Assembly (NCBI GenBank): GCA_050053635.1
Contig: JASFTI010000001.1
Coordinates: 1-40,405 of the forward strand
DNA length: 40,405 bases
Reading direction: 5' to 3'
Source of the DNA: Gemmatimonadales bacterium
GTDB taxonomy: Bacteria; Gemmatimonadota; Gemmatimonadetes; Palauibacterales; KS3-K002
Of this stretch, positions 21,001-27,000 are shown piece by piece; the first letter of the stretch is position 1; each line of letters begins with the position of its first letter. Made by a program: the position numbers.

Positions 21001-24000
21001 CCTGGGAGTCGAGTATCCGGCCTATCGTGCTCCTCACCGCGGCAGCCCTCTTCTTGGGTTGGGGGACGATGGAGATCCAGCGCTTCTTCGATCTGCTCGG
21101 CGAGCTCGATCGTTGGGACCTCGCCCGCGACCTGTCGATCAGTGGTTTCTGGATGGCTTACGCGGCTGGACTCCTTGCCGTCGGCTTCTGGCTCACGCGA
21201 CCACCGGTGCGTTGGGTCGGACTCGGCATGGCACTGCTCGCCGCCGGTAAGGTCTTCCTCTACGACCTCTCCCAGCTGTCACAGCTCTACCGAATCTTCA
21301 GCTTCGTGGCGCTGGCCATCGTTCTGCTGGCGCTTTCTTTCCGCTACCAGAAGCTGCGGGGTGCCGGCGAAGAAGCCGATTCCTAGCCGGCGGCGGCCGC
21401 GCCAGCGGCCCAGGTGGCGACTGCGGGGTCTAACTCGTTTTTGGGTAGAGGGTTAGTGCCTTCGAAGCCTGCCGACGCGTCCCCCGTAAAACCCGTCAAA
21501 AGTTTTCGTCAGAATGAAAACTATGATCGGTCAGTCTGTCCGCGCCGCTCGTAAGTCGTTGCCCTGTATTCCGCTTTTTTCTGGCACAAAGATGGCATTC
21601 TGTCCGTAGCCCAAGGCCCGCCCAAGGTCAGGCAAAAACGAAGAGGGGACGATGGCATCGCTCAGATGTAAACGTGGGTACACGTTGGTCGATATGGCGG
21701 TCGTGTTGCTGCTGATCGCCGCCGCCGTGGGCACCTCGGGTCCGCTGAGTCGACGGATGGTTGCTCTCTACCAGCTGAACACTGCCACTCAAACACTGGC
21801 AGCGGATCTATCGCAGACGAAGATACGAGCCATCCAGTCGAACGCGTTGGAAGCGGTCGAGCGAGAGTCGAACCGTAACTACCGGGCCGCAGGGTATCCG
21901 CGTCGCCTGCCGGGGATGGTTCGGTTCGATGTGGAAAGCGCCGATACGGTGGTGTTCAACGGGTTGGGCGCGATGAGCGACGGTGCGAGTCACCGCTTCG
22001 TATTGGTCAACCTGTTCGGCGAGTCGCGCGAGATAGTGATCTATGCCGCAGGCGGACACGAGGTTCGCAAGTTGTGAAGCAGACCGGCGGATTCAGTCTC
22101 GTTGAGTTAATGGTAGCGCTGGTGATCTTCGCGTTCGGAGTGCTGGCGGGGGTGGCGCTTCTGGGGTCCGGCTACCGATGGGAGGGGCAGGCAGAGTTGG
22201 AGACCCAGATGACAGTGGCAGCGGAGATGAAGGTCGAGGAGCTGAAGGCGCTGGCAGGGACCGAGCTACCGGACACGGTGGAACTGGTGCCGGGTGGAAA
22301 CCTCGAGTCGAATGTGACCGGATACTGGGACACGGCCGAACTGGACGGGCGCACGTTTACCCGACGCTGGCGGATTCAAGCAGGGCCGGCGGGGACAAGG
22401 CAAGTGACGGTAAGGGTACTGCCTCTGGATCCGCCCGCGGCGGGTTACGCGGAACTCTGGACACACGTGCTTCATGAGTAGTCGGCTTTGGAACGAGAAC
22501 GTCGCCGGCCGTCGCGCCGGGTTCAGCACGATCGGCATGATCGTCGCCTTCGTGCTCTTGGGACTCCTGCTGGCACCGATGCTAGGCACGATCCTGAGTG
22601 CGCAGCGCGGTTTCGTCGAGAGCCGGGGTCGGGCCCGCGCCGCCGGCAACGTGCGATACGCGCATCTGGCGCTCACACGCTTCATGCGCCTGGCCGGTAG
22701 CAGCCCGGTCGGGCTACCGCTCCCCGGCATAGATCCGGATCCCGGCGGCGACGGGGTCTTCAACGACGTGCGTCTGCGTTCCGACTACAATCCGCCTGAC
22801 GGTGATGTCGATGACCCTGGTGAAGATCTGACGTTCTTCCTGCGGGCCGATACCATGTTCGTGAAGTCCGGGGGCGATGGAGAGGAGGAACCTTTCCTCA
22901 TCGGTGTGGACTCGCTGGCGTTCGAGTACTTCGATCGTGACGGGTCGGTGATCGCCGATCCTGCTCGGATCGGGCCCCGCGCCATGGTGGTCGACGTGAC
23001 GATCCGGGCCCGTGGCGACCGATACGCCGACCCGGCCGAACGCACTCTCTCAGGTTTAGTACGGCTGCGAAACGGGAAGTGATGAGTATGTTGTACAGGC
23101 TGCGGTCCAACGAGTCGGGAATGGCGCTGCTGGCGGTACTGCTGGCGATGGGACTTCTGACAGCCCTGGGCGCCGCGCTCACCGCGGTGGGTATCGTCGA
23201 GTTCCGCGCCGCGAAGAACCACCGCTCGGCTTCGCGGGCCCTGCTGCTGGCGGACGCGGGCGCGACCCATGCGCTGGCGCTGATGCGCGGTCCGCTGTCC
23301 GGCTACAGCTACAGCGATGTGCTGGTCGGTGCCGACGGGATGGAAGACACAGACGACGATGGCGTCTTTTCGGGCTTCGCGCTCGCCGGTAGCGACGCGC
23401 TGCCTGACACCGGGATAATCCTCGGCGACGGTCGGTATTACGTGCGGATCGTCAACGACGATCAGGACCCCAGCGGCGATCCCTACCAGGACAACAATCA
23501 TCGCTTCGTCGCCCTCTGCCGCGGCGAAACGCCGGATGGCGGTGTGGCGGAGGTCAGGGTAATGCTCGCCGCCCCCAACTTCCCCGCCATCGCCACCAAC
23601 GGCACGCTGTATCTGCCCGGCAACCCCGATGTGGCCGGCGAGTGCGGCGGTGTGCACGCCAATCGGATCATGACGGTCAGCGGCCACCCGACAGTGACCG
23701 GGGACGTCACGTACTACGAGGACGCCGTCGTCAGCGGCACGATCTATGGGCCGGGTGGGGAAGTGAAGGAGCCGAAGCCCGGACCCTGGGTCGACATCCC
23801 GGAGTACGACCCGCTCGATTTCTGCGCCGATGCGGACTACAGGCTCAAGAATAACAAGCTGATCACGCTGGGGCCGACGGATAGCGAGGTCACCCTCGGC
23901 AAGGCCCTCGGCTGGCAGTTCGATGCGTCTACCTGGACGTACCAACTCAATGGTAAGGAAGCGGTGGGCGGCAAGTACTGCGTTCACGGCAACGTGAAGG

Positions 24001-27000
24001 TGACCGGCGACCTGGGCGAGCCCGGCAACCCGCTGAAGATCAGCATCCTGGCCACCGGCTCGATCCAGGTGGGCGGCACACCGATCATCGAGCCGGCCAA
24101 CATCAACGAAATCCTGTTGATGGCCGGCGGCGACGTGCAGATCGGCGGCACAACGTCGGCGAAGCGGTCTCCCTACTACCACGGGCTGATCTACGCCGGC
24201 AGCCAGTGTCAGGTGGGTGGTACGCCTTACGTTGACGGGCACGTCCTGTGCTACGACGACCCGGATCCTACTGGAGCGGTCGATCTGTTTGACGAGAACA
24301 AGATCAACGGGACCCCGACGATCAGCTATGACTGTTCGGGTGAGCTGCGGCGCACGTTGATGGCGTCGTGGTGGGAATCGCGGACGACTTCGTAGTTGTT
24401 GACACATAGATGAAGTGACCCCGGTCGCGAAATCGACGGCCGGGGAGGCCGGAGGCGCGCGAGCAAGAGGTGCGGAACGATGGTGGGGCGCGTACGAAGG
24501 GATGAGTCGGGCATAGCGTTGATCGCCGTGCTGCTGGGCATGGCGCTGCTTACCGTGATCGGTGCCGCGCTCACTGCGATTGGAATCGTCGAGTTGCGGA
24601 CCGCCATCAACCACCGCTCGGCAACCCGCGCCCTACTACTCGCAGATGCCGGGGTCAACCATGCCTTGGCCCTGATGCGCGGCCCGCTCAGCGACTTCAC
24701 GTACAGCGACATCGTCCGCGGAGACGATGGCGCGCCGGGCACCGCGGACGACGGCGTCCTCGTGGGCTTCGGGGTCAGCGCTTTCGACGAGATACCGGAC
24801 ACGGGCGTCGCGCTCGGCGACGGCCGCTACTTCGTCACTCTGGAGAACGACCCGCAGGATCCCAGCGGCGATCCCCACGTCGACTCCAACCATCGCCTGG
24901 TCGCGACCTGCCGAGGCGAAACGCGAGACGGCGGTGTGGCCGAGGTGGGGATCGTGCTCGCCGCGCCCAGCTTCCGGGCGATCGTCAGCAACGGTGACCT
25001 CACGCTGCCCGGTAACCCCGACGTGCTGGGGCCGTGCGCCGGTGTTCACGCCAACGGTGTGCTGGGCGTCAGCGGGCACCCGACGGTGGACGGCGACGCG
25101 ACGGCCGCGGAGGACATAAATCTGAGCGGGACGATCTATGACGCGAGCGGTGGGATCGTGATCCCCGAGCTATCGGGGAGGATCGAGGTCCCCGACCATA
25201 ACCCCCTCGATTACCTCGGACAGGCCGAATACGAGCTGCGGAATGGCTGGGTTGTCACCGTCAGGCCGCCTCGCGACAGCTCGCTGGCCACGGGCTCGAG
25301 CGTGCGGGGTTGGAAGTGGAATGCGGCGCAGGGCACTTGGTCGCTGGCCGGCAAGAAGGCGGAAGGCGGGACGTACTTTGTGCACGGCGACGTCGAGGTG
25401 ACGGGCAACGCCGGCAGTGACGGCGCTCCCCTCGAGATCACGATAATCGCCACCGGCTCGGTCAAGGTCGCTGGCAATCCGAAGATCAAAGCCGCGCACC
25501 CCGACGGAATTCTCATCCTCGCTGGCGGCGACGTCGATATCGGCGGCAATGCAAGCGGCATCACCCTGTCATACGCCGGCTTGGTCTACGCCGGCAGCCA
25601 GTGCCAGTTGCACGGAACGCCCAGCGTCGGCGGACACGTGCTGTGCCACGACGCGCCCGACCCGCCGGGTGCCGCCAATCTGGTGACTAACAACAGGGTC
25701 AATGGGACCCCCACGGTCACTTACGACTGCTCGGGTGAACGACGCCGCACGATGGTGGCATCGTGGTGGGAGTCTAGGGCTCGCTGAGCTGAACCCCGCC
25801 AAGATCAGAACTATAACCAATCACCTCCAACAAACAGGCGAGCACCGGATAACCGGCGCTCGCCTGTCTCGGCATCCGCCTGGGTGCTACCGTGCGCTGA
25901 ACTCGGGCCAGCGCAGCGTCCGGCCGGCCACCACTTTGACGCCATCATTGCGGGCCCGGTACATGGCGACGTCAGCCTCCACCACCAGGTCCTCCACGAC
26001 CCTCTGAAAGTCGGGAAAACCGAGGTCCATCGGCGCCACGTCGCCGGGGTCGAGAGTGGACAGGCCCATCGTCGTGGTCAAGGCCGGCATTCCCGGAGGC
26101 CACCAGCTCTCCCATTCGCTGGCTAGAGCCGACTGCAGGCGGTCCGCTACGATGCCGCCCCCTCCCTGGTTGGCGTCGATGAGAACGAGAAGGAACTCGT
26201 CGCCGCCGAACCGGCCCACGACATCCGAGTCGCGCACGTTCATCTTCAGCAGGTTGCCCAGGTGGCGCAGAGCCCGGTCCCCGACGACATGACCGTGCTC
26301 GTCGTTGAGGCTCTTGAAGTCGTCGATGTCGAGCATCAGTGCCGTAACGGGGAACGCTTTGCGCCAGGCGAGTTTCACAGTCTCGCGCAGACGCTCGAGG
26401 GTGAAAGCTTTACGAAAGACGCGCGTCGTCGTGTCGATGGTGGCAAGCTCGTAGAGACCGGCATTGCGAATCGCCGCGGCCGCTTGGCTCGCAAACAACT
26501 GCAGCAAGTCGACATCACGCTCACCTTGGCCCGGCCGCTCGAGATACGCGAGTCCCAAGACATGTTCAGCCAGGGAGAGGGGAAGGACGCCGTGATTATC
26601 GTCGATGATGTTGCTGTGCTCCTCGACAGCGCGACGCACGAGGTGCTCGGGCACCGATCGTAATTTCTCGATCGTGGCGCCCCGTGGATAAGAATCGCTG
26701 CTGGCGGCACTCACCACGAAATCGTCGATCGACTGCGGCGAGTAGATGAAACCCTCGATCGGACGCTTACCCACGGGATCCGTCGCTCGCGTCGCGACGA
26801 ACGCGCTCTCGCCGCCAAGTATTCCGCTGACCAGCGTCAATATTGTCTCGGTCAGCTCGTCGAGACTCTGGATCTCGTGCAGCTGCGGGACGCTCTCCAG
26901 TACGCGCCGCAGCCCGTGACGTGTCCGTCGGATAGTGTCGAGTTGCCGAGCCGATGCCAGCGCCGCCCTCACCCAGAGCAGCAGTCCGTCTTCGCCGTGT

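Follow-up and report, generated by a model that had tools for sequence, protein, structure and literature searches.

The stretch of DNA analysed here (hereafter the window) is a complete contig (C1, 40,405 bp) from the metagenome-assembled genome (MAG; 3.70 Mb in 458 contigs) of a Gemmatimonadales bacterium. Its closest protein matches are to Gemmatimonadota. Five co-oriented genes, read from the open reading frames of the plus strand, span positions 21652-25787 and most probably encode a set of minor pilins for a type IVa pilus (T4aP), ending in two large proteins with a predicted ComZ-like fold. Genes 1 and 2 overlap by GTGA at 22074-77, genes 2 and 3 by 8 nt (ATGAGTAG, 22474-81), and genes 3 and 4 by GTGA at 23079-82; a gap of 84 nt separates gene 4 from gene 5. 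The coordinates, overlaps and gap agree exactly with a preliminary description of the locus, which was made from the window sequence alone. The five genes were 'hypothetical' and now carry concrete annotations (Table 1).

The small minor pilins and their N-terminal motifs

The products of all five genes begin like class III signal peptides, with Gly at position -1 of the processing site (G/Y, G/F, G/F, G/M and G/I in gene order; the slash marks the cleavage position), followed by about 20 hydrophobic residues, and these features are kept in the orthologs. Conservation of the N-terminal motifs was scored over 16-19 orthologous loci. The motifs are those of the preliminary description and are kept across these loci, and they are therefore neither chance nor sequencing noise.

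The N-terminus of gene 1 reads KRG/YTLVD, with Tyr at +1 and Asp at +5. The ortholog motif is C[KR]RG/[YNH]T..[DE], and two orthologs have Glu at +5. The Pfam GspH profile was matched over its whole length by residues 45-134, below the threshold; full-profile matches were also found in 13 of 14 gene 1 orthologs (best E 8.4e-4, sub-threshold). Weak NCBIfam matches to XpsH/GspH point to the same class. Gene 2 has the canonical N-terminus GG/FSLVE (ortholog motif G/F[ST][LI]VE) and matched N_methyl above the cut-off (29.7 bits). Its match to the PilV model TIGR02523 (E 3.4e-7) covered the N-terminal part only and was below the cut-off, and the gene is putatively assigned to the I/V class by its size and position.

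Gene 3 matched no Pfam family; a weak XpsI match was found among the profile matches, and the gene is XpsI-like at the N-terminus only. It begins with AG/FSTIG (ortholog motif G/F[STG]T.[GA]M), and Gly or Ala occupies +5 in all orthologs. When its AlphaFold2 (AF2) model was searched against the PDB with Foldseek, the top 15 matches were all of the GspJ class (XcpW, EpsJ; best E 2.8e-4), and the 16th was TTHA1219 of Thermus; since the model is of low confidence, these matches are taken as supportive. Glu or Asp at +5 is restricted to genes 1 and 2, where it is kept in the orthologs. The lack of Glu5 is thus not confined to the terminal subunits, because gene 3 also has Gly/Ala at this position and gene 1 has Asp. 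As read from the sequences, the missing Glu5 of gene 3 and the Asp5 of gene 1 are departures from the canonical set.

Taken together, the profile matches and the models of genes 3 and 5 support the order GspH-I-J-K, or FimU-PilV-PilW-PilX, proposed in the preliminary description: GspH for gene 1, N_methyl with a weak PilV match for gene 2, XcpW/EpsJ for gene 3, and PilX_N with the ComZ fold for gene 5. Sequence and profile searches of the PDB with all four protein types returned N-terminal-helix or chance matches only.

The large pilins encoded by genes 4 and 5

Genes 4 and 5 share 58% identity over 434 aa, so the last gene of the set is indeed both duplicated and enlarged (438 and 435 aa), as had been proposed. 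The N-termini are ESG/MALLAVLL in gene 4 and ESG/IALIAVLL in gene 5, neither of them with Glu5, and the ortholog motif is [ED]SG/[MILVF]AL..VLL. Gene 5 matched PilX_N above the cut-off (28.8 bits), and DUF7305 was matched below the threshold in this pair. The NCBIfam matches of gene 4 to GspK and Verru_Chthon_A concern the N-terminus only; the GspK model NF037980 covers just residues 10-69 (19-24 bits; cut-off 130). Four Cys residues are invariant in genes 4 and 5. Both proteins are acidic (K+R 29-30, D+E 49-53). They diverge most at residues 221-300 of the predicted solenoid and are most alike in the pilin part.

The AF2 model of gene 5, based on 29 homologs, has a predicted local distance difference test score (pLDDT) of 89.4 and a predicted template modelling score (pTM) of 0.77. 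It comprises a helix (residues 9-67), four strands (110-161), a β-rich body (168-414) and a last strand (425-433). The top Foldseek match in the PDB, and the sole strong one, is ComZ of Thermus thermophilus (6qvi_A; E 8.5e-12, probability 1.0, 552 aligned columns). The next matches are the ice-binding β-solenoids 3uyu, 7ehk and 4nu2 (E 0.01-0.1). The protein is thus predicted to combine a pilin-like N-terminal domain with a large triangular β-solenoid of the ice-binding type.

ComZ has been described as a GspK-like pilin domain with a solenoid, closest in structure to FfIBP (4NU2), placed between the penultimate and last strands (PMC6561018). It was argued to be a tip pilin, which binds the neighbouring GspI-like PilA2 as well as DNA, and it is required for transformation and not for piliation (PMC6561018). 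The secondary Foldseek matches of gene 5 are the same ice-binding solenoids that were reported for ComZ (PMC6561018). The proteins would also share a hydrophobic N-terminal helix, the absence of a canonical pilin signature, a GspK-like sheet and a triangular ice-binding-like solenoid, as far as the model indicates.

The surroundings of the operon

The features of the window are listed in Table 1. Upstream of the operon are an ABC (ATP-binding cassette) pair, a histidine/aromatic ammonia-lyase and a DUF2339 membrane protein; downstream are the convergent receiver-GAF/DUF3369-GGDEF gene, an alcohol dehydrogenase and glycosyltransferases.

Table 1. Positions and assignments of the operon genes and other features of the window.
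Feature	Position	Strand	Length	Assignment or remark
Gene 1	21652-22077	+	141 aa	Putative GspH/FimU-class minor pilin, atypical class III signal
Gene 2	22074-22481	+	135 aa	Canonical prepilin, putative minor pilin of PilV/GspI size
Gene 3	22474-23082	+	202 aa	Putative GspJ/PilW-class minor pilin without Glu5
Gene 4	23079-24395	+	438 aa	ComZ-like tip pilin (putative), paralog A, without Glu5
Gene 5	24480-25787	+	435 aa	ComZ-like tip pilin (putative), paralog B, without Glu5
Putative sigma-54-type promoter element	21582-21597	+		TGGCAC-N5-TGGCA, about 55-70 nt before the gene 1 ATG
Receiver-GAF/DUF3369-GGDEF gene	25887-27470	-		Convergent neighbour (Pfam)
Lone PilA-like prepilin	31731-32189	-		MAKRG/FTLVE; N_methyl 31 bits; candidate major pilin
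Second lone PilA-like prepilin	36293-36766	-		ARG/FTLIE; N_methyl 24.9 bits; weak ComP_DUS match; candidate major pilin

In the window, which is the whole contig, no genes for pilus or secretion assembly were found, and in three closed relatives none lie up to 10 kb from the module; this agrees with what the preliminary description stated for the vicinity of the operon. Its further claim that the usual partners are absent stands for PilY1 and the assembly genes of the contig; it does not stand for pilins, since the window has two more canonical prepilin genes at distances of 6 and 10.5 kb downstream, and to say that no pilin partner is nearby is too strong.

These two are among five PilA-like lone pilins of the MAG. 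The nearer one ends in a poly-Lys tail (KKGKKKKKKKKK), and its orthologs, found at the same place in relatives, end in the shorter KKKGKK(K/R/T); a paralog on contig C114 ends in GSKGKGKK. The basic tail could enable this candidate major pilin to attach to DNA or acidic polymers.

Conservation of the module and age of the duplication

A four-gene core is found in the same order and at the same chromosomal site in at least 17 Gemmatimonadota loci. The order lyase, module, convergent GGDEF gene and dehydrogenase was seen in all 12 loci with enough flank, including three closed genomes, and in each of the 12 the GGDEF gene directly follows the module. The duplication is not universal, as several relatives have a single large gene (loci L044, L052, L056, L058 and L062). 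In a maximum-likelihood tree, the gene 4 orthologs group with the single-copy genes (100/99), and the gene 5 orthologs form separate deeper lineages. The two sets of orthologs are thus separate old lineages, which indicates that the duplication is old and that both copies were kept; a recent duplication was also considered and is ruled out by the tree. In two relatives, the copies of the large gene (G156:C80:1919-3262 and G177:C165:2868-3890) carry one in-frame TGA each and may be pseudogenes or assembly errors.

The large protein was detected at E <= 1e-30 in 25 of the 31 genomes of the family-level taxon, and at full length in 4 of 151 genomes sampled across the phylum. A profile search of 1.84 billion representatives, including metagenomes, gave 452 clusters at E <= 1e-30. 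In the genomes searched, the family is almost limited to Gemmatimonadota, and its distant clusters are all named 'hypothetical protein'. Gene 2 (37%) and genes 4 and 5 (26-28%) also have distant relatives on a contig binned as 'Bifidobacteriaceae' (L063, 6971-9005); the binning is probably wrong, or else the family extends outside Gemmatimonadota. A separate observation concerns the closed genome CP070823.1 (L043), where a second, inverted four-gene module (15768-19029, minus strand; GspH of 187 aa, then 135, 176 and 438 aa) lies 4.5 kb downstream from the orthologous operon, and the large protein encoded there is not close to genes 4 and 5.

The pilus machinery and related modules of the genome

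Other contigs of the MAG encode a T4aP machine as well as a prepilin peptidase. A PilB-like ATPase (577 aa; best model PilB) is on C15 (2803-4536, plus strand), PilT on C109 (above the cut-off), PilC on C4, PilM with N/O-like genes and PilQ on C85, and the prepilin peptidase (Peptidase_A24) on C433. PilM was present in 5 of 5 genomes tested, and in closed relatives it lies more than 1 Mb from the module.

The MAG has 25 N_methyl and 8 PilX_N matches. Similar modules with large PilX_N proteins occur on C298 (198/138/322/648 aa), C273, C89, C85 and C4. The operon is therefore not as self-contained as the preliminary description suggested, being one of at least five similar modules, one of which is directly upstream of pilMNOPQ. 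In that module (C85:6624-9530, minus strand), FimU-like, PilV-like and PilW-like genes and a 399-aa PilX_N gene, with heavily overlapping reading frames, sit between a PilS/PilR-like pair (a sigma-54 activator with GAFTGA) and pilMNOPQ. The large C85 protein is weakly similar to gene 5 (25% over 244 aa, pairwise BLASTP E 2e-7). On C4 (17009-24891, minus strand), five tandem PilX_N genes (443-524 aa) follow a minor-pilin set of 152/120/398 aa, with a further 124/396-aa pair upstream of that set. Judging from the gene sequences, this putative tip-pilin expansion is much larger than the pair in the window.

The preliminary description held that type IV pilus and type II secretion system (T2SS) origins could not be told apart. 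This is true of the window alone; the genome and its relatives point to the T4aP, given the machinery described above, the lack of GspG and the pattern in 16 family genomes. GspG was not found in the MAG, and GspL gave no match above the cut-off. Among the 31 family genomes, GspG is present in 10 whereas the module is present in 25, and in 16 genomes, among them the closed G159, G160 and G167, the module is present and GspG is not. The module thus most likely serves the T4aP machine. A T2SS-like cluster does exist in a genome of the same genus (G153), where GspE(MshEN), GspF, GspG, a GspL/PilN-like protein, GspM, a 168-aa protein and GspD are encoded directly after the MlaEFD operon (L083, G153:C38:103000-122000, 5757-13235). 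The genes for GspH-K are absent from this cluster, and the cluster itself is missing at the syntenic site of the MAG, as the homology on C312 stops after MlaD.

Absence of PilY1

No PilY1 domain (PF05567) was matched in the MAG, genes 4 and 5 included, or in the 151 sampled genomes of the phylum; as a positive control, the profile matched the Aeromonas caviae chromosome record (E 1.2e-10). The absence of PilY1 is therefore borne out for this genome. A broader statement, that PilY1 is absent from the lineage, is too strong in view of a PilY1-like gene in the closed genome G160 (see below); the absence holds for the MAG and most relatives.

Comparison with known minor-pilin systems

In Thermus, the locus consists of pilA1-pilA2-pilA3-comZ, and the major pilin gene pilA4 follows (PMC6561018). 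There, too, three small minor pilins precede one large pilin-like protein. ComZ is longer (554 aa) than the protein encoded here (435 aa), and the large proteins of the window differ from it in being acidic and tandemly duplicated, without detectable sequence similarity and with low TM-scores. The pilA4 gene follows directly in Thermus, whereas no major pilin gene comes directly after the operon here.

The FimU-PilV-PilW-PilX-PilY1 complex of Pseudomonas aeruginosa and Myxococcus xanthus shows the same gene order, a last pilin without Glu5, and PilX_N (PF14341) on the terminal subunit. The loss of Glu5 from the terminal PilX/GspK is a known hallmark, which in M. xanthus is limited to PilX (PMC7541494). 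The operon differs in that no PilY1 gene is in or near it, and its counterpart of PilX is over twice the size and has a predicted solenoid; moreover, Glu5 is also missing from the PilW equivalent, and the counterpart of FimU carries Tyr at +1 with Asp at +5. In M. xanthus a single T4aP machine is supplied by three minor-pilin clusters (PMC7541494), and several modules are likewise present in the MAG.

Cyanobacterial PilX proteins have a bulky solenoid between the penultimate and last strands, and they were proposed in 2026 to replace the PilY1 cap where PilY1 is absent (PMC13759059). Several PilX/PilV sets per genome were proposed to prime different filaments on one machine (PMC13759059). The presence of several minor-pilin sets per genome is a shared feature, although the comparison is by description and concerns another phylum. 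The cyanobacterial proteins have separate co-occurring PilV partners, whereas here two PilX paralogs share one FimU-PilV-PilW set in one operon.

The GspH-I-J-K tip of the T2SS (GspIJK of E. coli, 3CI0; XcpUVWX of P. aeruginosa) follows the same four-subunit logic, with a GspJ-like fold, as the low-confidence model suggests for gene 3, and a terminal subunit without Glu5. The module differs from it by not co-occurring with GspG and by the presence of PilT and PilMNOPQ in the MAG. As regards GspK itself, only the N-terminal helix was matched, and the body of gene 5 is closest to the ComZ-type β-solenoid.

A putative priming and tip module

We propose, with a probability of about 0.78, that the operon is a priming and tip module of the T4aP, whose filament is capped by one or the other of the two ComZ-like solenoid pilins; this pilin would give it an exposed tip surface, as PilY1 does elsewhere. 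The five products would enter the inner membrane and be processed by the prepilin peptidase, whose gene lies on another contig (C433). The GspI/PilV-like subunit (gene 2) and the GspJ/PilW-like subunit (gene 3) would then pair, and the subunit from gene 4 or gene 5 would be placed on top. Because this subunit lacks Glu5 and is predicted to carry a ComZ-like solenoid, we suggest that no further subunit is added above it and that it forms the filament cap. The GspH/FimU-like subunit (gene 1) would join the tip complex to the major pilin. The bulky solenoid would then be the exposed tip surface, for adhesion or for the capture of a ligand or DNA, as PilY1 is in Proteobacteria and Myxococcus. The two paralogs, which differ most within the solenoid, are probably two alternative tips on the same base.

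The preliminary description had suggested that the large PilX-like proteins take over the tip role of PilY1. By analogy, this fits the ComZ match and the published proposals (PMC6561018, PMC13759059). The idea is not new in itself: a replacement of PilY1 has already been published for the cyanobacterial solenoid PilX (PMC13759059), and a tip role for ComZ (PMC6561018).

Several observations weigh against the proposed tip module. The TM-scores between the gene 5 model and ComZ are low (0.31/0.27; root-mean-square deviation 13.5 Å), and phmmer and a 29-sequence profile, run against all PDB chains, gave no match below E 0.6, to ComZ or to any other chain; the resemblance is thus a likeness at the level of the fold and not a demonstrable homology. 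The strand order of gene 5 fits a solenoid between the penultimate and last strands, as read from the order of secondary structures and not from coordinates. The classes of genes 1 and 2 depend on sub-threshold matches, and the gene 3 model has a pLDDT of 61. Moreover, gene 3 lacks Glu5, unlike canonical GspJ/PilW, and the standard order of assembly may therefore not hold. The MAG is also incomplete (87.8%). Finally, the closed genome G160, of the same genus, has a solitary gene for a 1001-aa protein with a PilY1 domain (E 1e-28) and a type I signal peptide (L084, G160:C1:3146000-3164000, 7967-10972), and PilY1.3-like homologs in Gemmatimonadota were mentioned in a survey of 2026 (PMC13190605). 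The group as a whole is therefore not uniformly without PilY1. The G160 gene is 1.16 Mb from the module, adjoins no pilin gene and has no counterpart in the MAG.

The module might instead prime a dedicated competence pilus for DNA uptake, with the solenoid pilins as DNA receptors, and not a general pilus for adhesion or motility. The closest structure would speak for this, as ComZ is a DNA-binding protein that transformation requires and piliation does not (PMC6561018), and cyanobacteria use separate minor-pilin sets for their competence and motility pili (PMC13759059). ComEC was found in 4 of 5 family genomes, and of the two lone pilins in the window one has the weak ComP_DUS match and the other the poly-Lys tail. 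However, genes 4 and 5 are strongly acidic (with the residue counts given above), and there is no sequence similarity to ComZ by which its two DNA-binding lysines could be checked. ComEC was not found in the MAG, at its completeness of 87.8%. A fold match does not carry the specificity for a ligand either, and the same solenoid fold was proposed to serve adhesion in cyanobacteria (PMC13759059). A competence pilus is considered unlikely.

That the operon encodes the GspH-I-J-K pseudopilus tip of a T2SS, whose other genes are elsewhere, is very improbable. This reading gained weight from the G153 cluster, which has no minor pseudopilin genes of its own and would need them from elsewhere; the weak matches to XpsH, GspH, XpsI and the GspK N-terminus and the likeness of the gene 3 model to XcpW/EpsJ agree with it. 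It is largely refuted by co-occurrence, as neither GspG nor a GspL above the cut-off was found in the MAG and as GspG is missing from 16 genomes with the module (three of these are closed), and by the empty syntenic site on C312. Beyond the N-terminal helix, no match to GspK was found in the large subunit, which is predicted to carry the ComZ-type solenoid, and the minor pilins of Thermus are structurally T2SS-like and yet serve the type IV pilus (PMC6561018). A cassette of pilin-like proteins apart from the T4aP machine, such as a surface or periplasmic fibre resembling the 'Verru_Chthon' cassette of Verrucomicrobia, is just as hard to credit, and perhaps more so. It would account for the weak N-terminal matches to the Verru_Chthon proteins A, B and D, the wide separation from pilM in closed relatives (more than 1 Mb), and the unusual processing motifs of three of the five products. 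Yet the scores are far below the cut-offs of TIGR02596-02600 (24 vs 332 bits for A, 20 vs 70 for D, 9.8 vs 51 for B) and involve the hydrophobic N-terminal helices only; in none of the loci is the module linked to an ATPase or platform gene of its own, and the weakly related C85 module is physically linked to pilMNOPQ.

Promoter and possible control by c-di-GMP

Over both strands of the window there is a single strict match to the sigma-54 type, the element listed in Table 1. In 14 of 17 orthologous loci, gene 1 is preceded by the same element at a distance of 70-94 nt; two further loci have a one-base variant. The rpoN gene is present in the MAG, and a scan for sigma-70 promoters gave nothing above background. 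From these sequence features, transcription of the operon is probably sigma-54 dependent.

The PilB-like ATPase on C15 has a cyclic di-GMP (c-di-GMP)-binding N-terminus of the MshE type (NF053729, 58.9 bits; cut-off 38). This feature and the GGDEF neighbour of the operon, which may be functionally linked to the module, hint at a control of piliation by c-di-GMP. As a doubtful extension of the tip-module proposal, the old solenoid paralogs might compete for the shared GspH-I-J base, so that either tip could be built on one machine, and the choice of tip and the output of pili might be tied to c-di-GMP through the sigma-54 promoter, the GGDEF protein and the MshE-type N-terminus. If this were true, it would amount to a surface-sensing circuit without PilY1.

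Implications

The general picture of how minor pilins act is unchanged by the proposed module, which would not be a new kind of system. Rather, capping by ComZ or solenoid PilX proteins without PilY1 would not be confined to Deinococcota and cyanobacteria, and a known design would be extended to Gemmatimonadota, a phylum with almost no pilus biology, in which the large pilins form a large and unannotated protein family. The operon also offers variations on this design that can be tested: Glu5 is missing from the GspJ/PilW-type subunit, Asp takes its place in the GspH-type subunit, and one operon encodes two putative alternative tip pilins.

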